DNA of 62,238 bases, the filler included, from Bipalium vagum (Eukaryota): the NCBI GenBank assembly GCA_037834085.1. It is 3 parts of 3 records of this genome, joined end to end, with 100 filler letters (N's around TTAATTAATTAA, not from the genome) between each part and the next. Parts side by side here need not be neighbours in the genome. Positions count along the whole stretch, not along the records: positions 19,226 to 41,531 come from JBBMKC010223896.1; 2 more parts are not named here. One strand, written 5' to 3'. Position numbers and translations under genes: made by a program. Positions 1,221 through 60,401 of the stretch are shown here, piece by piece. The notes below the pieces were generated by a model. The model had not been told where the DNA came from, ran no database searches, and saw only the letters and a program-made list of their open reading frames with translations. The first letter of the stretch is position 1; every line of letters begins with the position of its first letter.

Positions 1221-1485
1221 TGTGAGAAAATTGAAATTTCAGAAAATCCCGGTATCTCCGATTAAATTTCAACTAACATGGCGACCACACCAGAACACCA
1301 ACCAGGTCTCGAAAGTGAAAAAGTAAAGTAATGGAATGGAAATTGAAGTAAAGAGACTCGGGGCGGTTAAGGGTATGGATGTGAGCTTTAAAGGAGGGGG
1401 ATGTAGCTCAGTGGTCAAAGCAGTCCATGTGCATGTGAAGGTCCCGGATTCGAATCCCGGAATCTCCGATTATTTTCAACTAACA
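1221..1485 (+). mobile_element. Miniature non-autonomous LTR retroelement (TRIM-like) with tRNA-derived LTRs
   Basis: CACTC TSD at 1216-1220 and 1486-1490. TG...CA ends. Direct repeat 1245-1278 vs 1453-1485 (31 of 34 nt match). PBS TGGCGACCACACCAG at 1279-1293, immediately after the 5' LTR. PPT AAAGGAGGGGGA at 1390-1401, immediately before TGTAGCTC. Confidence 0.8.
1397..1468 (+). pseudogene. tRNA-Ala-derived sequence (A box, degenerate B box) inside the 3' LTR; not a functional tRNA
   Basis: GGGGATGTAGCTCAGTGG...GCATGTGAAGGTCCCGGATTCGAATCCCGGAATCTCC closely follows eukaryotic tRNA-Ala. The anticodon stem does not pair. Confidence 0.75.
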
Positions 1486-5108: not shown

Positions 5109-8100
5109 TTATAACAATTTGTAAATGGAGATGCCGACCAGCGTTACGGTCAAGGAAAACATCTTGTGAACCACATTAACAAGATAAGATGCCTTAGACC
5201 TTTGATTGGAGATCATTTTCCCATTTGAATCATAATCCACAACTCTAGGAATCCAGATCTCATTGGGGATCTCTCCGGGATATTCGTGAGGCAACAGAAC
5301 TGAGAAATTGGTATTTTCCTTAATGAGAGAAACTGTGGTACCTAGAAAATGATTAACAGGTGACTTGGATTGGGATATCTGTGGCTTGTATGAGGTCGTT
5401 TCCTCATCGACCGATTGGCCACTTCCTTCTAGAATAGTCGATTCACGACCTTGATTAATTTCTTTCTCAGGCGCCTTGGGTTCAGTAACCGGTGCCAAAG
5501 TGGTTGTGGAAGTAGTGAAAACTGTCACGGGTTTTGTGGACTTTTCCCTATCGACAGAACCACTTCCCTGAAATCAAATTTAATCATATTTACTGAAACG
5601 ATTTCAGAGTCTGAAATCTAAAAAATCAAACAATCACAACAGTGGTCAGTTTAAGTTGATGTTTAAAACTAAGGTTGGTACAAAACAGATAATATAAAAT
5701 GCAGAACTTTATAACCAGCATGAACCTATTCACCTGAAAAGATATTACAGGCATTTGAGATCTTTAAAAAAGATAGTTAGGACACTTTGAGAACTAGATT
5801 ATGAAATTTGACATTACAATATTTTCCAGACTTAGTTGCGACAGATATTCATTGATTCAAACTAACTATCTAATTTATCACGTCTAAGATTTTTGAATTT
5901 AAAAGCCTCTAAGCTTTAAGCACGGTTAAAATGTTGTGAAAAGTATATTAAACTCGACGTAATTGGTTTTCAATAAATTATTTTTATCATTTCTATTTTT
6001 TAATTTGACAGAAAATTCAAAGAAAATCCCATTTATTTTACATGCACTAGCCTACAGTAAAATGGACGTGGAAGGAAAAGAAGTAGACAAATTTAATATC
6101 ATTTCATAAAAAATTGAGTACCATTGATAAATACTAAATGGTTAAAGTGGTTATTTCAACAATAATAGATAACATTTAGGACATAAGTGAAATTAGCCTA
6201 ATACTACACTCTTACTAAAATCTTGTCACTGGAAAAACAGATATTAACCAATGAAAATATCTAAGTATGTATGATTAAGTTTTCATATAACTGAAAATTC
6301 ATTTTTTGCTGCAGTCATTGTAAAATTATGAGTAATTTCGTAAATGCACTATTTCTCATCTGTCATTCGATATTTAAAGATATGAAAGTTACAAGGGAAG
6401 AATCTATTTCCTTATTGAAACATGTCGCCGAAATGATATATAGGCTAAAGAATGTCATCATTTCATCTGCAAAGCATGGGACAATGACTGTATACTTGAC
6501 GACAATTTTCCCCTGGTATTCATATTTCTAATCTGAACAATAAATTTCTTTTGAAGATAATGCCAGATAAGGACTCTTAGTCTTCTCATCATGACGAACT
6601 TGTGAAAATAGCGAATCAATGGATCATGATCTCCATATTACGATAGACAAATTTACTGAGCGTACTGATGCTTCTCTTGGCATGATCCAAGGTATTCAAA
6701 CTTCAAATGTCTTGCGATACCAGACTTGACAGCCGCCATTATTCTCATGTTGTCCACATTGTACTGCTTCTAAAATCAGATTCCTTAAAGAAAAAAAATT
6801 GCTGCATCAGTCACTCTATAGTCTTGACTTTAATATGCTTGATCTGTGGGTTATTGCTAAATTGAAATGGAATCCATGTCATTTTTCAAGCCGCATACGA
6901 AATGGAAAAATGTGTGATAGATGTTGCAAATTTTGAGAAAAAATGATTCTGAATTTTATAATAAAAATTTTATTGACTACTTCTGCATTCATCAATATAA
7001 AAAGATTCAAGCAAAACTAATTGTTTCCGAAACAGTGTAAGAAAACACCAGAATAATTACATTTAAGATATTACCAAGTTTTTTTTGCCGTAAATGAGAA
7101 ATTTTACCAAAAACCAGCTAGATAAATTTTCTGAATCTCAGTATCATGGAAAATGCCATTTTAAGGGTTGGAAAAACGCAATAAGCAAAGAAATCGATCA
7201 TGTGCCTCATGTAATATTGCTCTCTAGGATAACAGGGAGGTGAGCAAGAGTTATAAGGGGACGGTATTTCCTGTATGAAACATGTTGTGTTCGCAACTTA
7301 CAGCAGTCATAGCAACTCGTTTTGTGAAGAGCATCAAATCCATTATCATCAATAGTTTCAGAGAAATTATAAATGTCGTGAAAGATTGAGTTTATTAAAA
7401 GAAAAAAATTAAATATTTTAAACAAAATCTATTTGTGTTAAGTTTTCGTGTGATTAGAAAAAGAGAAGTTTTTTAAAAATATTTTTTCGATTTCACTGCT
7501 TTTAGAATTAAATTTTCGAAAAACTAATTGAAAATCTTTCCTAAAATATGAAAGAAAATAATTTAGTTTGGAAATTCTTAAAATAAAGCTTTATGAAAAA
7601 AATCTTGAATAAATTTTGAGTTTTTCGAGAAGAATTTTTTTAACCGAAGACATTTTTCAAATAACTTTTGAAAAGAAAAATTTTTGTCAAAGTCAGTTTT
7701 AATCGGTCCATTGCTGTTCTGAGATAATGAAATCATCATTGTGACCGTGATTCATGGTTACCATTGAAATTTTATTTGGAAAAAGGTAATTCCAATTACG
7801 TAATTCTACGCCTCGTTGTCTATAATAGATTTAGAAAAAGTGTTGTCTGAAAATGAATGTTCAATTTTTTAATCATTACCAATTTCGTGACACAAATGAA
7901 AAACCCAACCAACTGACAGTTGCTTTTCACGACAAATTTAAAGTTACCGGTCCAAGAAAAAATTAGTCAAATGTGCTAAATACGAACATGAAAATCATGG
8001 AATCTATTTCACATTCCTAAAAAACAGCACTCGGCTGATTCTCCACCTTTGGATGATTCTACCAAAATATAATATAAAAATATTTAAAAATGATTCTTCC

Positions 8101-11100
8101 CTTTGAAATTAATTTTTGTCTATCAAACAATACAACTAACGCCTGATTACGGATCCGGATGATATTTTCAATGTATAAACATAATATATAAAAGTAGAAG
8201 TTTGACAATTTGAAATAACCTTTAATCCATTACACTAATATCATTATTATTGTTCCCCTGATGAGAAATATTATTGATAGATAATCATCACACTACGGTT
8301 TTCCACCAGTTTTATATTATTATTAATAAAATTATGATTCGTTCTATAACCTACAAAAAATATAGAGAACAGTACATGTTTATAGAATGATCGATAAATG
8401 AGATGATATAAATAAACATAAATTAATAACAGATTTTTCCGTTGTATGTCACATCGAAACGGAAGTCCAGGACAACTAATAACTTAAATCAATTTCCTTC
8501 ATTTTTTGTTGATTTTTCAATTTAAATAAGTTAAGATCAATCGATAAGAAAAATGACAATACTAAACAGAATATTTTCCTCAAGAAATATTGTGGATCGA
8601 AATCTTTTTGCAATACATCATCCTGATGTATGAGACCTTAAAAATCCTATAATTCACAATTATATTTTTGGTGATATTTTTAGTTTGAAAAATAAAAAAG
8701 TAAATCATTATTTTTAAAATTATGCACGATAGTGTTATTCAGGCCAGTGATTCGAAAACGAAAAATTTCACTTCGGAGTGCTGCTGCTAAATAATAGAGA
8801 AATAAGGACGTCTTTACATAATAATAAGGAAACTTAAATAGAAAACAGTTGATTATTTTCTAATAATGGAATCAAATAAGGATAATATAAGACCTTTTAA
8901 TATAATTGAAGTTTTAGTGTTTAAAATTTTATTAAAATAATTATAATATAAAAAACGAATTGTTCTTTTAAACAAATAACTACCTCAATCACTGGCTTCT
9001 TTTCATTGGAAATGTCCTTAGTATTGGACCGCTCGTTTTCGTTTTGAATCGAAGTGAGATCTTCATCATCTGGGATGGTTGGTTTTCGAATAGGAGGCTG
9101 TTTAGGCGGCGAAGGATCTTGCTTTTTGGTAGGAAGTTCCGGAAAAGACGGAGTTTTTTTTCCAGTATTAATGTCAGTGGGTACATTTTTATTTCCACTT
9201 CCTTCAATGACCTCCGGTGGTTTTACTGTTACAATAACAGGTGGTACCTCTGGCTTGATTTTTGCATCTTCCTTTACATTTTCTGTATCAATGTTACCAC
9301 CACCACTGCCTTCGATATTCTTCTGCAATTTCCCATAAATTAATAATAGTGGACCGTTAAGATTACCTCTGATATTCGAAATGATCTTACTCGTGGAATA
9401 TCAGCTTTCCTTATTGGTTTCACGTTTTTCACTTTGTAAGCAACAGGATCTCTATTCTTATTATTTAGCAAATCGTTAATTGTTGTGGCAATTTTATTTA
9501 ATTTTGAAATTGAAGTTTTCACCAAAGGATCAATATTCATAGCTTTATTTTTTTTTACATCCTTGGATTCTCCATTCTTACTGGAACGAGTAATGATGTC
9601 AGCATGAACTTTTAATAATAAAACAATCTTTATTAATCTCATCTTCAAATAATCAAACGACCACTTGCAATATCACAATTCTTAATTCAAGCTAGCCTAC
9701 ATAGATCTTTTATGTATCTTATTTTCTTTTCTCATTTTGACGCCTCAACTTTGTTGTGAACAATTAATATTTTTGAGAGACATTTAAAAATAATTGTCTT
9801 AGGATTATACCCAAACCAGATATTATCCTAGAGACTCCGACAACCAAGTGGGCTGTGTAAAATAAATATAGAAAATCTAGACTTGTTTACATATTTTTTC
9901 CAATAGAAATATGATTTTTATCATTATTATTTCGTTTTTATAAGCTTGACACTTTTATGGACATCATCAACAGAAATCATATTATAAGACAAAAAACAGG
10001 AGTATCAATTTCACTGTTTCAAACCATCACTTCTATCATGACTTCAGAGTTGGTTTTTCCAGAACAAATATTTCTGGGTCATTTTTATTTTACTGATATT
10101 CCAGCGATATCGATAATAACCTAAAAGATTTTTTCATTTCCATTCAAATGGTTCTTGTCCACAAAAATATCAAAAATTAATTTTTAATAAAATTGCTTAA
10201 AGAAACAAAATTTGCAATTATCAATTTTAATCGATCGGTAAAATCATTAGAAACAATTTGGTAATTGATTCTTGAAAATAAGAAATTAATAAAATTTCTA
10301 AATATTGAAAATGGTCTTGAGATACTAATTGTACCCTTTCGTTCAAAAATGTAAGACTAAAATCAATTATCTAAATTCAAATATCTGTGAATATATAGAC
10401 GACAACATGTGAAAATAACATATTTGATTGACCATTCAAGTTTTATTATTATCATTTTTAATATAATAAATAAATTAAATTTCCTCTTTTTATTATTACC
10501 TTACTTCTTTTTATCATTAACAATATTATTTATTAAATAACTTTTAAAATTCGATATAGACTGAAATAAAGTCAAGGGAGCAATCTCTGGAGAAATAATA
10601 AAAATAAAGATGGATAATAAAGAAAAAATTATAAATGAGTTTGATTTTATTTTGGAAAAAGCATAACTTTACTTTAAAGTTTCTTTTGAACCATTCCAAC
10701 ATGGTTTTCCGGTTTTTGGTATATTAAGTTTACTGGAACAAATTTTATCAGCATATTTGTGAATAAATTGTATCATTTCTGGAATCTGAATATCAAAAAA
10801 TTCTGTTATTTTAAAAATTGTACCGATTTTGGTTTATTTAAGGAATAAAATATAAAAAATAAATTCCATAGATTTTCGTGAAAATAAATAAGTAATCTGA
10901 ACTATTTATACTTGGTGGCTTCGATCAGTTTTAGATGATGTAGAAACAGAACTATTGAGAGATAAAAGTAAAGAAATTTTTCAAAACTGAAAGATTAATG
11001 AAAATAATTTTTAAAAGATGAGACAAAGATAATGGAGAAATATTGAGATAGAATCTTTTATTTTGGCGGTTCATTCTGAGATCGACAGTCCGAGAACATG

Positions 11101-19575: not shown

Positions 19576-19908
19576 TTAATTTTTATGTAATGGAAATCTA
19601 TTGATAATAGAAATTATATCTCCATCAACTAAATTGAGAGATTCTGGTGTTTCATCAGGACTTATTTCTATGTTATTAAAAGAAAAGACGAATTCTCTAT
19701 AAAACAGAACTCCCATTTTAGTGCAGAATGCATTCATTGCTATATACATGGGTGCTCCTCTCGACATTCTGAATCTCATCGTGGCATTGTTTGGCAATTG
19801 AAAAATCAAAAATGTCCATCGAAAATTATTTGACGAGCCTAAATCCGAACCGTTGACTATATTTTCCGAATAATTACAATTGTTTTCATAACTGTTAAAG
19901 AGGTTCAT
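19576..19908 (-). CDS. Intronless SUMO/Rad60-like ubiquitin-fold protein lacking the C-terminal di-glycine
   Basis: MRFRMSRGAPMYIAMNAFCTKMG..EFVFSFNNIEISPDETPESLNLVDGDII matches the SUMO pattern F.....T.L.KLM.AYC...G.....F.F.G..I....TP..L.MEDGD.I. The ORF ends INRFPLHKN. Confidence 0.7.
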   Translation of the reverse strand: MNLFNSYENNCNYSENIVNGSDLGSSNNFRWTFLIFQLPNNATMRFRMSRGAPMYIAMNAFCTKMGVLFYREFVFSFNNIEISPDETPESLNLVDGDIISIINRFPLHKN

Positions 19909-20516
19909 AAAAATAATATTTTTGATTCATATCAATCCATAAATCGTTTGAAAATCTTTCGAATCAATTTTGCAAAATATCACACTGATAAATAATTATA
20001 ATTTATTAATCATTATTAATAAATTATTATTTATTTATAATTTTCGTTTTTAATATTAATATGCAAGAAGTTATGAAATTTTGTTGATACTGGTAATTCA
20101 ATCTAAACCTCAATTGACCACATAGCCTAATGGTTGAGTTCCTATACTTTTGACAATAACCAACAAAATTATTCACTAATATTTATTATTTATGACAACT
20201 TTACTATCGGTTAGACAAACTAGTGCTATTAACAATATATGCACCAAGTTCACATACATTCGCAACAAAACTAATGATCCCAAAACAGTCAATGTTTGTC
20301 TATGTATCATAAGAATGCTAAATAGATAGCAAATGGTGCTCGAGTGATATGACAATCCAAAATATATCCAGACCCAATCCTTCAGAATTATAATTACTTC
20401 TAAAATTAATGCAATTAGACTCCAAAAAAATTTTACACGGATGTCACCATAGAGTTTAATTTTAAAACCACAAAAATTAACTGAGACAATTCTATATTAT
20501 ATAAAGATGAATAGTA

Positions 20517-21739
20517 CAGTCCCAGTCAAGAGTCTGAGCCAACCTTCAAAAATTGAGTTGATTTCATTATTTATCCATTGGCATGACATCAATTTAGATA
20601 TAGGTATTTATATAACTCTGACCTATATCAATTTATTGTTTTTTCATTAATATTGCATAATTATCAATATTATTCTTGTCAAATAAATACTTTTGTTTAA
20701 ATAATAAATGAATTATATGCTGAAAAAAGGGCTCAAATTTTGATTATGTACGACGAAGGTTATTCGCAGAGACAAATTACGATGAGAATGAATGTGTCAA
20801 GGGGAGCTTTTCGACGTTCAATTCAACGATATGACTTGGATAAATCATTCAAGTCCAAGCAACGATGTAGAAGGCCAAAAGTAACAACAGTTCAAACTAA
20901 TAGATTGATTCATCGGTTGTCCTGTACTCGACCTTTTGCACCGACACGTGAAATTAGATCACAACTTCCTCCAAATGCACCAGTAAGCATGAGTACCATT
21001 TCTTGACGGCTTAGACACGATTTCTCATTGCACTCCAGAAGGCCTACAATAAAGCCGAGACTTTCTTTAAAGAATGTTAAAGAACGCCTACTCTTTTGTA
21101 ACAAATATAAGAATTGGAAGCCCACAGATTGTTATTTTTCAGACGAATGTAAGATCCAGAAATTCTCTCCCAATGTTATACGCGTCTGGAGAACTGACGG
21201 CACAAGTTTGATCCAAAATATACTGTCAAGAATGTAAAACATTTTCCTTCCGTTATGGTCTGGTCATCAATGTCATATGATGGTGTGGGTAATTTATGTT
21301 TTGTTCCTGCTGTTACAACTATTAGATCTACGGAGTACATCGACATATTAAACGAACACCTTATGCCAATTGAAACTGGTAAAATCTTTCAGCATGATGG
21401 GGCCACTTGTCATACAACCAAGGCCGTAAAAGAATTTATCTCTCTTAACAATATGGAGATACTTTGTCCATGGCCTGGAAATTCCCCCGACCTCTTACCA
21501 ATTGAAAACTGCTGGTCCGAATTGAAGAAAAAAGTCCCAAATCTCAATCCAACATCAATTAATGACCTAAAAATTAAAATTAATCAAGTGTGGAGAAATG
21601 ATATCTCGCCTGACTATTGCAAACATTTAATTGAGTCAATGCCTAATCGTATTGTGGCAGTCATTAAAGCTAAAGGATAGATCACAAAATATTAAATTTT
21701 TTTATAATGCTCATTCATGATAAATATTGTACATAATAT
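20517..21739 (+). mobile_element. Tc1-family DNA transposon, decayed transposase, right end interrupted by an LTR
   Basis: TA|CAGTCCCAGTCAAGAGTCTGAG TIR. ORF pieces 20740-21680 contain RRPKVT, YFSDECK, FQHDGATCH and WPGNSPDLLPIENCW (35 residues counted between the second D and E). Confidence 0.9.
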
Positions 21740-22632
21740 TGTTGGGTTAGCCAAGGACACATCTCTGCCAACCCTTGTAAAGTATATGGTAGAGACCGCA
21801 ATAGGGTTTAGATCGATTATTATCAATTAATTATTAAGACCACAAGACGGTCAGAAATAACTTAATAATAATAATAACTTAATAATAACAATTAATTAAA
21901 AAGTACATCCAAACAAAAAAGGGGCAATTAATTATTTCCAAAAAGAATCTGATCTTGACAATGGCGAATCTTAATTGCCAAGATTAGATCAGGGTCCGCA
22001 AGGAGGGACCGATTTAAAATTATCGGTCTAAAAAGGGAATCGATATTCCCTATTAATCAAGCTGATCTACGATTGATTATTCGTCTGATCAGAATAGTAT
22101 ATAAGGAGTTGGAATCCGCAGTGGATTGCCACAGAAGTGAGATCGAGAATTATTATTATTGTCAGAAGAAGGACCAAGAGCTATTATTATTATTTTATTG
22201 TCAGAAGAGTAATAAAAAAGATTTGGTTTTATTTTGTCAGAAGAGTCAAAATTTGCTGCTATTATCCGAAGATTTTTTCGACATTATAATTCATATTTAT
22301 GCTCTCTATGCGACAGGAGCTCACGACGGGCTCTTTGCTGTTAGGGAATTTCTGAGGGAACGGATTGAGTTCAGCTAACCACTCTTTGGACCTGTCCTCA
22401 CAAGTGCTTAGAGTATCTTAATTTTTATTCATTTTTTTCTTTTTAATTAACCCTTACGTACGCACAATTATTCGATATTGATGTTTAATAATTTAATTGA
22501 TTATTACCATTTGATTTTTAGTGTGATAACATTTGTTATTTTTTGTGTAAGATTGCAGACATTTTATTGATCATTTGAAACATTTTGTTACTGTTTGTAT
22601 TGTTATTTTAGCAATAAAGTGATGTTCATAGT
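21740..22632 (+). mobile_element. LTR of the same family as 31-1034, 3'-truncated
   Basis: Starts TGTTGGGTTAGCCAAGGACAC and is homologous to the reverse complement of ~230-1034. It stops where the tRNA element begins. Confidence 0.8.
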
Positions 22633-22752
22633 TGTGAGATATATTGAAAATTAGTCTGGAGATGTAGCTCAGCGGTCAGAGCAGTGCATGCGCATGTGAA
22701 GGTCCCGGGTTCGAATGCCGGTATCTCCGATTAATTTTCAATATATCTCACA
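22633..22752 (+). mobile_element. 120-bp palindromic tRNA-containing element (solo LTR or MITE-like form of the 1221-1485 family)
   Basis: Perfect 21-bp inverted repeats 22633-22653 / 22732-22752 around a tRNA-Ala-like core. Shares the TGTGAGA..TTGAAA start and ATCTCCGATTA..TTTCAA end with 1221-1485. Confidence 0.8.
22658..22729 (+). pseudogene. tRNA-Ala-derived core with intact Pol III A and B boxes
   Basis: A box TAGCTCAGCGG at 22665-22675, B box GGTTCGAAT at 22708-22716, acceptor stem GGAGATG/TATCTCC, TTTT at 22735-22738. The anticodon stem is unpaired. Confidence 0.75.
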
Positions 22753-22919
22753 CAAAAAATTCAAAAAATTTAATACAAATCGGCTAAAATGGTTACGTTC
22801 ATGTTCGTTGGCTCATGGAAATCATATTGAACACCATTTATAGTGTGAATAAATTTTGCTAATAAATAAGTTTTATCTTTTATAATTTTGAATTTTATGG
22901 TTTTTTGTGGGGAACCCTG
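22753..22919 (+). mobile_element. 3' end fragment of a maT/DD37D-like element
   Basis: A HGNHIEH-type transposase C-terminus followed by the TIR ...GGGGAACCCTG|TA. Confidence 0.4.
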
Positions 22920-22926
22920 TAAAATA

Positions 22927-22960
22927 CAGTCCCCGTCAAAAGTCTAAGCCCACCTTCAAA
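22927..22960. mobile_element. Second TIR of the 20517 Tc1 family (same orientation, so it belongs to another copy)
   Basis: TA|CAGTCCCCGTCAAAAGTCTAAGCCCACCTTCAAA vs TA|CAGTCCCAGTCAAGAGTCTGAGCCAACCTTCAAA. Confidence 0.7.
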
Positions 22961-23109
22961 AAATGTATATTCCTATTGTACATTTGAAAAGACGTATTAT
23001 TTCCAAAAATGCACATATTGTTACGATATTATCTCACTATGAACACTTTCGTAACACTTAGCTCGCAAAGTTACTGACCCCTTCACTTTTGCCTATACAT
23101 GTACGCAAA

Positions 23110-23420
23110 TGAATGAATCCATGTATCTCACAATTTGAATTGAGATGCTGTTCCAAATTTCAGTCAACAGTCGTTTTAATGATTTAATATCATTGACTTC
23201 TTTGCTGTAACTGAGATTGATGTAACAGTATTCCCCAAATGGCAAAATGCATCACATTTAGGTCCGGAGTTTTGGATGGTATGATGAAATCCAGTATATT
23301 GTCTTTGAGCCATAAAATTATATCCCTAGCTGTGTGAGCTTTTGCTCCATCCAGTTGCCATGTCTATTCCTTTCCATTCATTGTCTTCTTGATGTCTTCA
23401 AACAGTTGGTGGCAAATGCG
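23110..23420 (-). mobile_element. maT/DD37D-like transposase remnant
   Basis: The minus strand translates WQLDGAKAHTARDIILWLKDNILDFIIPSKTPDLNVMHFAIWGIL. Confidence 0.65.
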
Positions 23421-24241
23421 TATACATTTTTGTACATATTAACTGATTTTCTTTTTGAAGTAGATCTTCTTGATTAGCAGCATATCCTTCAAAAAATTGA
23501 TACTCTGTTTTGTCATACCATACGGCATCGCATAATATAATTGTATACTAATACAATTAACAAAAAAAATTAGTATGGACATTTTAAAAAATAAAAAAAA
23601 CAATAAGTTTCTCATCACCAAAAGTAAAGATGAATTGCCAAACCGTCAGTCGACTTCAATGGTTCACTCATTGGTTCTTCTTGCTTAATTAAATTTTTCA
23701 TTGATAGCTTCTTCGAGTTAGAAATGTTGTAAAAACATGCTTCAACAAGAAGAGAACGAATCATTTGATAATTGTTCTCTTATTTCTTGCAAATATCCAG
23801 GACAAATTACTAAATTTTTCTCCTTTTTTCCAGATTTAATGAATGTTAGATCTTTCCTTTATGAATAATACTGTCATCAATGACCAGTAGAATATTCAAT
23901 CGTTGACTGTCAAAAATAGGTGGAACTATCTTCAAAAAATTAGTTTTTTAAAAAGTTTTTATTTTTGTCAAATAATAATGAAGATAGTTTTTTAAAATAA
24001 TGATAGTGATATCATTTGAAGATAGACATTGAAAAATAAAATTGACTGGAGAAATGAAGAGATCGAAACATGTATCAAATTAGTAGAATAAATAAAATAT
24101 TGCGTGTTCAAAAATGTTTTTAAAAAAGCGTGTATTTGAAAATATATATCGATGATGAGATTTTAATATATTTTTTTGTAATTTTTCGAAAATTAAAATT
24201 TTTTTTTAATTAATATTGTTATTATTAATATTAACAATTTT

Positions 24242-42942: not shown

Positions 42943-44088
42943 AATCAGTTGGCAATTGTGAAATTTTGGTGCGTGATTGTGTTTATCGGTTTTTGTTAAA
43001 AGTTTGGTGGTTTTGTTTTGATTTTGTAAGTCCTGAGTGGCATTAGATAAATTTTTGGAACTTTTAGTAAAGTCCGCAGAGGTGTAAAAGTTATTGGTAT
43101 ATTATTAGCGTTTGAGGAAGAAATCAGTTAGTTTTCAGAAACTAGTCTGGCTAGTGGAAAGAAATCAGTTACAGATATTCGAGGAGTTATAACCAGAAGT
43201 TTAACAAAGATAATTAAAGAGAAAGGTATAGAGGAAAATAATTTAGAAATCAAGGAGAATAACCGAGAAGCAACAGTAGAGGATATCAATACAGGTGTTA
43301 AAGAGATAGAAAGAATGGATTACGAATTAGTAAAGTTACCGATTAGAACATTTAATGGGGAACGAACAGAACTTTCAGATTTTATGGCCGAGTATAGGCA
43401 AGTAGCAGAAGCTTTAGGATATGATGAAGCACGGATGATAAGAAGATTACCAATTCATTTAAGTGGAATGGCAAGGAGTGCATATTATGACATAAATGTA
43501 GCAAACAAAAATTGGGCAGAAGTAGTTAAGGAATTGACGAAGAAGCTAATTCCAGGAGACATAGGCAGAGTAAATATGCAAATGTTCCACCAGAGGAAGC
43601 AAGGAGCAGAAGAGCCAGTAGGCGAATACGCATACCAAGTAGAACTATTAGCACAGAGAGAATTCAGACCCAAGAACCAGTGGACCGAAACAATTAAAAA
43701 GATAGTGGAAGATTAGTTTTTCATTGGAATTCTACAACCATTAAGAACAGCGTTAGGATTGAGAGATCATAATGATTTCGAAGAGTTACTGCAAAAGGCA
43801 CGAAAAGCGGAATTGAATATTAAAAGAAACCCAACGATGATTTGTGAAATAGGAGCAATTAGAGGAGACAGCAGTAGGACTAGAAACATAGTGTCGAAGT
43901 GAAATGAGACTAGTGAGCAAATGGTAAAGAAATGTTTTAATTGTCAGAAACCAGGGAATTTAGCGAAGCAATGTCGAGCTAGGAAATTAGAATTTAGTTC
44001 AGGTCCAGGAAGGGATCAGAGGCGGAATACAGATATTGTTTGTCGAAACTGTAATGAAACAGGTCATTTCCCAAAAGAGTGTAAAATA

Positions 44089-44258
44089 TTAGGTTTCCGA
44101 AAAAGTAATTGCGGTTGTATATATAGACTTCTTAATAATTGGCAAAAAATTGTTGATTCTGATGGAAATTATTTGGTTTAATAAAGTTGATTTTTTAAAA
44201 AGTTATGACTTCTTAAAGTATATGGTTATAAACCGCAATTACTCTTTTGGAAACCTAA
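44089..44258 (+). mobile_element. 170-bp mariner deletion derivative (MITE) inserted in Gypsy gag
   Basis: TA-flanked TIRs TTAGGTTTCCGAAAAAGTAATTGCGGTT / AACCGCAATTACTCTTTTGGAAACCTAA (Hsmar1/MADE1-like). The interior encodes the transposase tail WQKIVDSDGNYLV*. Confidence 0.9.
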
Positions 44259-47200
44259 TAATCCGAATCCGTATTTTACTAACATCAAGCTCGAAAACCA
44301 AAAATGAAGAAGATAAAGAGGAGAATACCAACAGCGCCAGTTGGCGCCAAATATCTCAAGATTAATAGGAAATTACCGAAGGTGTCGGTTCGTTACACAT
44401 CATTAATCGGACTGTGTCCAGCAATTTATCCGACATTGGATCCATTTATATACGACGAAATATCAGGAAAGGAGCACGATGCAGATGAAAACCTGGAAGA
44501 GAAACCACAAGACCGTGAACTTGATGAGGAGGAAGTAGCTAGGTTAGGAATTCCAATATATAAGCCTAGGGTAGACATGATTAAAGCAAGTATAGGGGAG
44601 AAACGGAGGGTAGATGACAAAAGTGTAATAAAAGTCAAAAATAATGGAAGAATGGTATCAGCCTTATTAGATAAAGGAGCTACGGTATCAATTATTAATG
44701 ATAAAATTTTAACAGATTACAAGAACAACAATATGCAGCCAGCATCAGGACCCCGAACATTAACAGGGCAAAATTTCGAGTTTCAAGGAAAGGTGGTACG
44801 CGTAATCGAACTAGGAGTCCACAAGATAGAACATGACATGTGAGTAATGACCAATTGTTCATAATCAGAATGGATATTCTATCGTAACTACAAGGAGTAG
44901 CGTTCGATTTAGTCACAAGAAATCTTATTCCAGTTCACGACAGCAGAGGACAAAGACGAGCGGTGAACGATATAGTATTACATGAAAATCTGCTATTACC
45001 AGCGAGAGCAGAGACAGAATGCTTTATTACAGCAGGAATACAAGGAAAGAGAGCGATGCATTTCAAATCAAGCATCGAGTTACGATGGTTACATGGAGCA
45101 GTAGATGAAGTAGTGGAAATCAAAGACGGAAAGATCCCAGTAAGAGTAGTCAATTTTGACGTAAAAGAAAAACAGTTATACACAAAAATGAAGATTGGAC
45201 AATTACAGCCTCTAACAAATGAACTCTATGCAGATTCCATCAATGTATTACGACCAAGTATGATTAAGAAATATAAATCAACAATTACAAGGAGCCCAAA
45301 TTTGACAGAACGACAGCGAGAATATTTGCAAAAAGTAATTTGGAAATTTGACCATGAATTCGCTAAGGATCATTACACTTAGTGTGTACGCATATACTCA
45401 AACACAAAATTATTTTGACAGATTCAGCACCCATTAGACAAAGGGTCTATAGATAACCGTACGCATTAGAAGAAGAAATAAACCAGCAAATTAATGACAT
45501 GTTGAAAGTGGGATCTATTGAGCCAAGTTCCTCACCATGGGCGTCACTCGTAGTAATGGTAAAGAAGAAGGACGGATCAATCAGAATGTGTATTGATTAT
45601 AGGAAGGTTAATGAAGTAACCAGGAAAGACACATATCCTATACCAGTGATAGAAATGATGTTTGATAAAATCAAAAGGTCAAAAATATTTACCGTAATGG
45701 ATTTACAAAAAGGATATAATCAGGTGGCAATGCATGAAGACAGTAAAGAAATCACTGCTTTTGTAACAAGTAAAGACCTATATCAATACAATAAGATGCC
45801 CTTTGGATAAACAGGCGCTCCAGCGATTGATGAACTTGATATTAATGGATGTAGAACATGCAATGATTTACTTAGATGATATAATAATCTTTTCTTTGAA
45901 TGGAGATAAACACATAAAGAACATAGTGGCAGTCTTGCAAAGACTAAAGGTAGTGGGATTAAAAGTAAAGCCAACCAAGTGTGAATGGACAAAAAGTGAA
46001 GTCAAATATGTGTGTCATATAGTATCAGGATCAGGAATTCGACCGGAACCCGAGAATATAAAAAAGCAGCAAATTTTACTTTACCAAAGAATACAAAGGA
46101 AGTCAGAGAATTTATTGGATTAGTGGGATATTATAGGAGATTTATTAAGAATTACGCGAAAATTGCAGCACCGTTGACGATTTATTAAAATAGGAAACAA
46201 AGGCTCTTAAAAGAAAAGTGAAGCGAGAAAAGGTAGTCAATATAATAGAAAACAAGTGAACAAATTGGCGTGGGGAGGGGAACAACAAAAGGCACTTGAA
46301 CAGTTAAAAGAAAAATTAATTAGCGAACAATATTGCGTATCCGGATATGGCAAAACCATTTCTTCTAATGACGGATGCAAGCGGATATGCAGTAGGAGCA
46401 ATTTTAGCACAAGCAGAAGGCGAAAAAGTCCATGTCATAGAATACGCAAGCAGAGGATTGTAGAAGCACGAGATTAACTATGCAACAATAGAAAAAGAAG
46501 CGTTGCCAATAGTGTTTGCCTTCAAAAAGTTTAGACATTACTTGTGGGGGCGGAAAATTACTCTATTTGCAGATCATAGACTGTTACAGTGGTTGTTGAA
46601 AATTAGAGATACTGCAAGTCGACTGATCAGATGGGCTTTGAGATTGCGGTAATATGACATCAAAATTCAGTACTGGAAAGGAAGAGCAAACGCAAACGCG
46701 GATACATTATCAAGGATGAAGCAGGACGAATTAACAAGGGAGGAAACACAGTTGGGGAAGATGATGAAACAATATTAGCAGTAATCTGAGGAGTAAACAC
46801 TAGGGAATTCTAGGGAAGAGGATCAAAGAGAAGATGAGGATATAGTATTGATTAAAGAATGTATGACGGGACAAGTTCCGGAAGATTGGCAAAAGAGTTG
46901 GGAGAAATTAAAAGACAAATTCAAAATTAAAGAAGGCATTTTATATTTTATCAAAGACAAAGAGTTATGCTATGTAGTACCCAGTAAGGACATGGATCCA
47001 ATCATGATACAATATTATGACGGGGCGCTAGGTGGACATCTATCAGCAAGAAAAACGTTATCAAGAATTTTAAGGAAATATTTTTGGCCGAAGATGGAAG
47101 AAAACATTAGGAATTGGTGTCAATCTGTCAGACACGGAAAGGAACAGGAGGAAGAGCAAACGTACGCTCAAACTAATTACGAAATGGCCGGAAGCCTATG

Positions 47201-49715
47201 CAATGAAAACTCAGAAGGCTGCGCTCAATAGCAAAGATTCTCTTAGAAGAAATTATTTTTAGATATGGAGCTCCTAGAAAATTGCTCACGGACAGAGAAA
47301 CAAATTTTATGAGCGAATTGCTAAAAGAGATATATGTTTTATTTGCTATACTTAAACTTAATACATCACGGTATAGACCGCAAACGGATGGGCTAGTAGA
47401 AAGATTTAATGGAACATTACTCAAGATGCTATCTTCATACACTAAAAAAATGTCAAACAGATTGGGATGTACACATATCGTCATGTTTATTTGCATACAG
47501 AAACGCAGTTCATACTGGTACACAAGAGACGCCATTCTATCTAATGTATTTAAGAAACAACAATATGCCGATTGATTTAGAATATGTAAAATCGACTTCA
47601 CAATATCTGAAGGAAGGAGATTATAAAGTAGTAATGCATAAAAGACTACAGGAAGCATGGGAAAAAGCGGGACTCAATATAAGATACGGACAGGAAAAAT
47701 ACAAAGAACGATACTATAGAACGGCGAAAGAACATAATTTTAAACGCGCTTTTATAGCCGATTACAGAGCCACTGACCACGGAATAATCCAAGAAATAGC
47801 TCAGGGACAAATGGACGAGTTGGTAGCGAAATTAGACTTAAGCAAGTTGTTGGAGGAGAAAGTAGTAATAGGATATGAGGTTAAGAAGGCTTTGAAAGCA
47901 ATAAGAATCGATAGAAGCTGGCTAAGAGGGTATAGGGATTTGGTAACCTTACTCATCTTAAAGAAAGACAAATTGATTGCGTTAAGAAGAATGGAACAGC
48001 CTCCTTGAATTTATTGGTCCAATACTATGATAACAAGAGGATGACAGAAAGAAGAGAATATTTGGTCCTAACCAGAAATGCATCTTTCATGCAAGGTGTA
48101 TGGGCAAGTGTAGCTGAAAGATAAATCGAAAATGCAAGAAGAAAGAAGAAAGAAGGACACTATCCAAAAGGTGGAAGAAAAGAAGCCAATTTTGGAGCAA
48201 ATTAGAATGAATAGGAATGAAGTAATTAAAGAAATTGGCAAACATTTAATGCAAAAAATAGAGGAAAACCAACAACCAGCAGAATGTTGGAGGAAACCAT
48301 AATAGATGTTTAAGAGTCCTCAGATGAGAAACCATAGGAACAAATGCAGGTAGAAGAAGCAAAAAATAACACACCAAACAATGAGGATAATTTTTCAGAA
48401 AATAGTGAAGACGAACGAGAAAGAGAAGACTTGGCAAAGAAGTATGAAAAGTTTAGAAGAAGGTTTAAATCACCACCGGTGGATTTAGATGATAGTATTG
48501 AGGAATTTGAGGTGATATTAACTGGGGAAGAACATACCAGGAGGCAACGAGAGAAAGAAAAAAGAAGGAAACCGAAGTAAAAGTAGTAGTAACCGATTTT
48601 AAGCGGAAAGTAATGATTAAGAAGTTTCCTGAGGATAGAAGAAAACCAAAAGCAGATAAGTCGGAAGATGGTGAGATAATTATATTGACTGAGACAATAG
48701 ATTTGTCAAACAATACAGCAGAAGAAGAAGAGAATCAGGGGTTAATAGATTCAAGTATGGAAGAATTACAGAGAACTGAATTGCGGTTAACTTCATCATT
48801 AGCCGACATACACAGGATGAGTAAAACCAGCGGATAGTTTTAGAAAGAGATAATACTCGAATCGAACAAAACAGGCCAAGAGTTAGTATTGATCAACGAT
48901 TGGAAGAGGAAACACATAGTAAAATCACAACAAATGGAAGGAATAGAATATAACCGGGTCAGAGCTACAGAGAAGACGAAGAAGACCTAAAAGAAGAACC
49001 CAAAATAAACAATGATTAATAAACTTTTGTCTTATGATTACTTAGCTTTGGTGATGATAATACCAAATAAAACTTTCCGCTATTATGTATTAGTTGATTA
49101 CTATTACCAAATTCGGAGGATCAAATTTCTTTAAATCGGGAGAGTTTGTTGGGTTACCCAAAACACCCACTCGTTCGAAATGAAAATTGTAAAATTCTGC
49201 TCAAAATAATAATAATAATAATTAAATAATAATTTTAGCTAATTAAAATGTACAAAAGTTAATTAAAACGGAAAAAAGGCAATACATTATTTTTTTGGGA
49301 TCTAATCTTGCCAATGGCGAACCTAAAAAACTCTGTATACTAAAACTATTTCAATATATTTTACTTTGGATTAAATTATGATATTTCTTTATTATTTAAA
49401 ATATTAAAAAATTAATTCTTACAATATTTAGATTCCTAAAATAAATTTGTTCGCAAATTACATCACATGTTTTTAACCAAATTTAAATTATTGTTAATTA
49501 ACCCAATCTATATTATCAAAAGCTTTTATTAGCCCATTAAGCAAGAATATCTTTTAAATTTAATCATGATGAATTTTAAAAAATGATCTTGGAAATTTAA
49601 CAAAGATCCAAAATATTAGTTTTACTGTTTAAATAATAATCTCAAAGCAACAATTTTGAAAGTTTTTTGAATTTATTTGATAAAATAGTTTATTAATTCA
49701 GACATTTCTCTAATA

Positions 49716-60401
<10,686 letters not shown>

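Follow-up and report, generated by a model that had tools for sequence, protein, structure and literature searches.

The 120-bp unit at positions 22633 to 22752 of the window analyzed here (62,238 nucleotides of Bipalium vagum DNA in three joined stretches) is a solo LTR of a high-copy, tRNA-bearing TRIM, and its perfect arms probably arose through a polymerase template switch that copied the 5′ end of the LTR over its 3′ end. The locus lies on contig C223896 of a 441-Mb short-read assembly of 272,664 contigs. As the first-pass annotation had seen, exact 21-bp arms flank a tRNA-like core: 22633-22653 is the exact reverse complement of 22732-22752. This palindrome is the longest inverted repeat in its 22.3-kb stretch, where all others are 13 bp or shorter, and none of 100 dinucleotide shuffles of that stretch gave an inverted repeat of more than 17 bp. 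The long hairpin expected from these arms was recovered by RNAfold, which folds 22633..22752 into a single long stem (-54.5 kcal/mol, z -6.7). The A and B boxes and the following TTTT were likewise found in place (starting at 22665, 22708, and 22735, respectively), and the view of the unit as a solo LTR is supported by the structure of the family, its TG..CA ends, and its TSDs. The parts of the unit are as follows.

22633..22752, plus strand: solo LTR of the tRNA-bearing TRIM with converted 3′ end, 120 bp (ordinary copies, 114-115 bp)
22633..22653, plus strand: 5′ arm (U3 end), like that of ordinary copies, T-type allele
22658..22729, plus strand: tRNA-like core; acceptor, D, and T arms pair; A3 and G73 in this copy
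22665..22675, plus strand: box A, putative Pol III promoter element, with the motif TRGCY..YGG as in the consulted portion of PMC10886601
22708..22719, plus strand: box B; in other copies a LINE 3′ junction lies at the 5′ edge of the motif
22732..22740, plus strand: inner part of the 3′ arm, including the T4 tract (22735-22738), kept in ordinary copies as part of a 13-bp imperfect inverted repeat
22741..22752, plus strand: converted tract, 12 nt complementary to the 5′ end, replacing the ordinary 6-7-nt LTR end

The TRIM family and its LTR

The family to which this unit belongs is an approximately 360-bp TRIM with a tRNA-derived LTR, of the Helenus/TRIMp3 type. A genome search with the 120-bp query returned 2147 first-look candidates, and among the 40 of these that were scored, the match almost always stopped at query base 108-111. 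An exact 20-mer at the 3′ end of the core occurs 994 times in the genome and served as the family anchor. Ordinary LTR copies start with TGT, end with ACA, and lack the perfect arm, their only inverted repeat being the imperfect one of 13 bp just outside the acceptor stem. Of 55 complete ordinary-ended copies in the loci analyzed, the 40 without an adjoining PPT or PBS formed the solo set, from a sample that mixes best hits with an unbiased set; the remaining complete copies adjoin a PBS or a purine tract. A perfect 5-bp TSD flanks 30 of the 40 solos, and at least four of five positions agree in 34, while perfect TSDs are found at 4 bp in none and at 6 bp in one; a cross-locus control gave 26 matches in 5000. 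The TSDs are unbiased in sequence.

The internal domain measures 130-132 nt in seven loci, with the purine tract of the PPT abutting the 3′ LTR, and the PBS in L016 is complementary to a tRNA-Arg(ACG) gene of the same genome (L122) plus CCA at 18 of 18 nucleotides. Two-LTR copies with 5-bp TSDs are present in L016, L124, and L150 and in the window itself.

1221..1485, plus strand: degenerate two-LTR copy of the same TRIM (LTR, PBS at 1279, PPT, LTR) with a perfect 5-bp TSD, CACTC

The 3′ LTR of this degenerate copy is without U3, through a deletion between the end of the PPT and the similar start of the tRNA core. A conventional LTR, of at least two types, stands before this tRNA-Arg PBS in 9 of 30 loci, and in L162 the PBS borders directly on an RT_RNaseH region. 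Judged by this shared PBS, these conventional elements are candidate autonomous partners of the TRIM. Both types end in TAACA before the PBS; one is found in L162, L181, L186, and L188, and the other in L164, L172, L176, L177, and L187.

Several copies have unusual boundaries. In L120, L121, and L128, further complement of tRNA-Arg, including the CCA end, follows the PBS, as read-through into the primer tRNA would produce during reverse transcription. In L038, L039, and L059, the LTR is followed by a short PBS piece and then by unrelated flank, with a repeat of the last bases of the LTR between the two in L038 and L039. L038 and L059 have a PPT to the left and a PBS to the right of the LTR, which suggests that they are products of tandem or aberrant integration. 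On the two contigs of L018 and L059, one and the same mariner-derived flank stands before the PBS, where the 5′ LTR would be.

We also observed a second tRNA-bearing TRIM family (L046:1694-1811, L160, L175, L180, and L183-L185), with a 118-bp LTR, the same PBS, a 5-bp TSD, and no T4 tract. Its acceptor stem has a 9-bp extension that differs in sequence from that of the first family, and a joint alignment of both families did not recover the stem extension, the registers being different.

We propose that Pol III would transcribe the TRIM from boxes A and B, that an autonomous LTR element that shares its PBS would reverse-transcribe it from a tRNA-Arg primer and integrate it with a 5-bp TSD, and that LTR-LTR recombination would leave the solo LTRs.

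The tRNA-like core

The core, putatively Ala-like in identity, matches the Rfam tRNA model (RF00005) over 22658-22729 at 40 bits against a gathering score of 29, with the anticodon arm unaligned; this arm is one base shorter than in the core of the second TRIM family. The first-pass annotation had proposed that promoter and fold are retained and decoding is lost, and this is supported: boxes A and B are present, ARAGORN reports no tRNA gene in the window, and it calls a tRNA in three of three ordinary copies, none with a definable anticodon. The replacement of the identity pair G3:U70 by A3:U70, which had been noted along with this, is true of the present copy but does not hold as a trait of the family, in which 44 of 49 scorable cores carry G3 with G3:U70 intact. 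A3:U70 is a minor variant and not part of the family design. Because ARAGORN finds no definable anticodon and A3 is such a variant, decoding was likely lost through the anticodon arm.

The Rfam score and the G3:U70 pair kept by most copies would suit a working, charged tRNA gene, a reading to which we give almost no credence: neither the present copy nor the ordinary ones presented the combination of a cloverleaf, a 7-nt anticodon loop, and a definable anticodon to ARAGORN, position 73 is G in 58 of 59 cores, and the core sits within LTR ends associated with a PBS and TSDs.

Comparison with Helenus and related elements

Several parallels are offered by Helenus (TRIMp3; Kojima 2024), as described in the consulted portion of PMC10886601. 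Both are TRIMs of less than 1 kb in which each LTR contains tRNA-derived sequence, with conserved boxes A (TRGCY, YGG) and B (GGTTC). Helenus likewise has a PPT and a PBS directed at the 3′ terminus of a host tRNA, which is tRNA-Arg also in wasp families, and it shows many solo LTRs, a likely nonfunctional tRNA, and several families per genome (PMC10886601, same portion). In keeping with this type, the family has two LTRs around a short noncoding internal part of less than about 1 kb, boxes A and B in the LTR, a PBS and a PPT, a TSD in the range of 4-6 bp, and solos. The same portion of PMC10886601 gives a 4-bp TSD for animal Helenus and 5 bp for the fungal and plant families, and in this respect the present family, with 0 of 40 solos at 4 bp and 30 at 5 bp, differs from its animal counterparts. 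It differs also in that both families here extend the acceptor stem and in that the LTR is a fixed target of a LINE. Cassandra and Ajax similarly have the Pol III promoter of a small RNA in a TRIM LTR, and Ajax is an animal element with 5-bp TSDs, but the promoter in those elements is 5S rRNA derived and that of the present LTR is tRNA derived (PMC10886601, in the portion consulted). A term search of PMC10886601 returned no "inverted," "palindrom," or "hairpin," and flatworms were absent from a term search of its text and supplement. Our search of openly accessible papers found no report of palindromic Helenus LTRs or of flatworm Helenus.

A TSD displaced by a probable inversion

The first-pass annotation saw no TSD and attributed this to deletion of a neighboring LTR, regarded as the host of the insertion. 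Neither point was borne out. A TSD matching at four of five positions flanks the unit, its two copies now parted by an inversion; the insertion target was a Tc1/mariner-like element; and the neighboring LTR has lost only 0-2 nt at its break.

22753..22757, plus strand: right TSD copy, CAAAA
23133..23137, minus strand: left TSD copy, CAAAT, displaced by the putative inversion
23118..23132, minus strand: remnant of the LTR 5′ end at the far breakpoint, 13/15, with 9 nt exact (23124-23132)
22753..22921, plus strand: Tc1/mariner-like element B, 3′ part and terminal repeat, the true insertion target
23133..23541, minus strand: element B, 5′ part, in the opposite orientation to the 3′ part
21740..22635, plus strand: conventional multicopy solo LTR with 4-bp TSD ATAT, first part; left breakpoint at TGT microhomology
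23019..23119, minus strand: last 100 bp of the conventional LTR, inverted
20517..21739, plus strand: Tc1-like element A with HTH and DDE_3 fragments; its 3′ end is inverted at 22925-23018

We take CAAAT/CAAAA as a TSD because both flanks carry a private C at its first position, where in-register intact copies of element B have G in 13 of 13 cases. Together with the U3-type ends on both sides, the shared TSD implies that the unit sat in element B with U3-type ends at either side. Flipping one segment restores the conventional LTR with its 4-bp TSD and closes element A, so that all three nested elements regain their own TSDs. From this reconstruction we infer an inversion of about 490 bp, with microhomologies TGT and TTGA and 8 nt of U3 duplicated, that would have moved the left TSD copy. 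It would have followed or accompanied the perfection of the arms, and the position of one breakpoint at the foot of the hairpin suggests that the hairpin caused the break.

Two other arrangements were considered and rejected. The right arm is not the 5′ end of a second, opposite copy, since the element B flanks share the private base and both abut U3-type ends; and the unit was not inserted into the neighboring LTR, which is split by the inversion (21740-22635 on the plus strand, 23019-23119 on the minus strand). Another copy of this conventional LTR family lies at 217-1036 of the window, on the minus strand.

Perfect arms as probable products of recurrent template switching

The palindrome had been treated as a feature of the family, but the perfect end is exact at only 4 of 994 anchors and present at nine sites with up to three mismatches (about 0.4-1% of copies); nine is a lower bound, as the search missed L159. 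Both ends are U3-type in six of the nine sites, and in none does a PBS follow the perfect end. In three (L072, L074, and L076), the other end is lost or lies off the contig, and these may be spacer inversions. The TSD agrees at five of five positions in L069, at four of five in L071, L073, and the present copy, and at two of five in L033. The 3′ arm reproduces the copy's own 5′ allele in all five informative copies, one of T type and four of A type. Perfect-ended copies thus include both 5′ alleles, and they also include both core types; some contain a LINE or an internal deletion or belong to a two-LTR element. L075 is such an element; its 5′ LTR is ordinary, and its 3′ LTR is converted. In L073, each arm has drifted since conversion, and hence that event is old. 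The share of LINE-bearing copies (3/9 against 2/30) is not a significant enrichment (p 0.07).

MITEs are short, noncoding elements with terminal inverted repeats, and the present copy resembles them on all three counts. It was suggested in the first-pass annotation that the unit might move in a MITE-like manner, in which case the perfect-ended copies would be a sub-lineage that a DNA transposase mobilizes or that is amplified as a unit. The perfect end does occur at nine sites, several with TSDs, and the starred branches of a 61-row core tree are by themselves compatible with as few as two origins. Against this stand its rarity among the anchors, the mixture of 5′ alleles, core types, and contexts, and a TSD length that is the 5 bp of the parent. 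In the core tree, the five converted cores need five changes and are grouped in 0 of 200 bootstrap trees, though the tree is weak (98 columns, with 2 of 44 branches starred, which force only two origins) and leaves out L069, L071, L074, and L076, whose cores are incomplete. No homogeneous multicopy family defined by these ends was found, nor do TSD and terminal repeats together fit a DNA transposon superfamily; the arms are the U3 end of the LTR, and in TSD, PBS, and PPT the family agrees with an LTR element. Nothing indicates that perfect-ended copies move as such, and we consider a MITE-like sub-lineage highly improbable. The evidence fits recurrent template switching instead, the perfect palindrome having most likely arisen as a by-product of mutation. 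Local fold-back, which the first-pass annotation had set against its own reading as an event unique to this copy, is thus largely what we find, except that the event recurs.

Template switching at quasi-palindromes has two known products, homogenization of the arms and inversion of the spacer (PMC8604942, in the part consulted). Both occur in the present family: L153 and L159 belong to a two-LTR TRIM on contig C194546 in which the core of the 5′ LTR, together with a 1.9-kb LINE, is flipped between the same inner arms. We propose that the nascent top strand, once past the 13-bp inner repeat, would fold back on itself, use its own 5′ end as template for about 12 nt, and return at the shared terminal ACA, most likely in chromosomal replication or repair. 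The inner inverted repeat of the LTR would in this way sometimes lead a polymerase to rewrite the 3′ end or to invert the spacer. As in the quasi-palindrome cases treated in the consulted parts of PMC8604942 and PMC3820800, imperfect repeats are recurrently perfected or their spacer inverted; what differs here is the setting, a repeat of about 1000 copies with a 72-nt spacer of tRNA fold and a 12-nt tract replacing a 6-7-nt end.

The conversions found run in one direction. A search for the reverse event, with the 5′ arm overwritten, gave no exact match, and the counts of 0 and 2 at up to two mismatches included no true case: of the two matches, L154 proved to be an ordinary LTR with mutations and L153 the spacer inversion. 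Six forward conversions against no reverse one correspond to a p of 0.03 at equal sensitivity and of 0.09 at a 2:1 sensitivity. Unbiased chromosomal switching should give both directions, so this asymmetry leaves room for a strand-biased process or for a route through reverse transcription. In the latter, plus-strand DNA would fold back in the 3′ LTR, integrase would take the U3-like end, and later LTR-LTR recombination would yield a palindromic solo. Besides the direction, the fact that conversion halts exactly where the LTR ends and leaves the TSD in place (L069, L071, L073, and the present copy) would agree with such a route, as would L075, where only the 3′ LTR is converted and the next bases weakly resemble a reversed PPT (11/16). 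However, the spacer inversion of L159 includes the LINE, which entered after integration, implying that switching or recombination between these arms does take place in the chromosome. Further, the right flank of L072 mirrors 10 nt of its left flank, and chromosomal quasi-palindrome mutations in transcribed DNA are also known to be strand biased (PMC3820800, in the part consulted). We regard perfection during reverse transcription as unlikely and retain chromosomal template switching as the preferred explanation.

Finally, a short-read assembly of 272,664 contigs might create a perfect arm or an inversion as an assembly or library chimera. One sequencing run provided no exact (100% likeness) cover of the far junction at 23115-23156. 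In contrast, a contig from the same run spans 22723 to 22823, across the converted arm, at single-copy depth (21.8 against 22); that run is probably the source of the assembly itself, and the bridging contig has fewer than 31 letters to the left of both junctions. The words shared at the junctions are only 3-10 nt long, the same end is present at eight other loci, and the flipping of a single segment, described above, reassembles all three nested elements with their own TSDs. A chimera accordingly has very little probability.

A LINE that ends at box B of the LTR

At five loci the core is broken just before box B by a common sequence. A genome search with this interrupting sequence alone gave 334 candidates, of which 40 were scored and 30 fetched; LINE copies are present in L052, L124-L152, L159, and L190. 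By alignment, the 3′ end lies at one and the same base before the box B motif (equivalent to window position 22708) in 30 of 30 fetched copies; a strict recount gave 28 of 30, with the LTR trailer following in 26. The 5′ ends vary, from about 150 to more than 5000 bp. Seven copies that retain the 5′ half of the LTR join it 2-4 target bases short of the site, and three more show larger losses. The longest copy, of about 5.3 kb (L190, on contig C82091), encodes an Ulp1-like protease, RT, CCHC, and a restriction-like endonuclease (RVT_1, E 4.9e-14; Peptidase_C48 above cutoff; R2 structures, E 8e-6). A homolog search returned no match, and the Atlas yielded nothing beyond generic zf-RVT look-alikes. 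Earlier readings of the interrupting sequence as a Dada DNA transposon or as the long LTR of the partner were rejected once the RT and restriction-like endonuclease were seen.

By this domain layout, which is that of NeSL elements in the consulted portion of PMC4640811, the element is a LINE of the NeSL type (Ulp1-RT-RLE). With NeSL-clade LINEs it shares the domains, the fixed 3′ junction, variable 5′ truncation, and a tRNA-type target (PMC4640811, same portion). Among these, the planarian LIN15_SM and LIN25_SM insert in tRNA-Arg and tRNA-Glu genes, respectively, and in these true tRNA genes their junctions fall in the D arm or acceptor stem (PMC4640811, same portion), whereas the LINE described here joins the 5′ edge of box B in a TRIM LTR. 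A LINE ending at a fixed site of this LTR is new here; our search of openly accessible papers found no report of a TRIM-targeting LINE. A second LINE lineage, about 67% alike, occupies the same site in L159, L071, and L074, and the second TRIM family is also hit by the NeSL-type LINE (L134, L137, and L167).

Other features of the window

Outside the TRIM copies, the window contains a broken coding region of an LTR retrotransposon at 43132-48008, with gag-, protease-, and integrase-like pieces and an Integrase_H2C2 match, and a mariner transposase fragment at 57174-57557. On the minus strand are a Polinton-like DNA_pol_B_2 fragment at 2022-2755, below cutoff, and a SUMO-like domain at 19576-19926. 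Two identical 300-nt copies, 405 nt apart (53178-53477 and 53583-53882), represent a recent tandem duplication or an assembly artifact. Two ORFs with Ser-Gly and Thr/Pro-rich stretches (5109-5573 and 8921-9400, minus strand), neither with a Pfam match, are possibly exons of one proteoglycan-like gene.

Implications

Taking these findings together, we lean modestly toward a picture in which the TRIM occupies the middle of three levels of parasitism: it would depend on an autonomous LTR element and would itself be the dedicated landing site of at least two NeSL-type LINE lineages that cut at box B, and not in true tRNA genes, while its LTR repeatedly perfects or flips itself in one direction and seeds local inversions. 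The family extends Helenus to a host group that is not listed in the consulted portion of its defining paper, and its TSD length breaks the 4-bp rule given there for animals. Such copies can inflate counts of tRNA genes, as ARAGORN calls ordinary copies undetermined tRNAs. With about 1000 copies of one quasi-palindrome, the genome offers a natural assay for template switching, covering its rate, strand bias, tract ends, and link to inversion. If the LINE targets the tRNA promoter that the TRIM has borrowed, its target would have shifted from tRNA genes to a transposon that mimics them.
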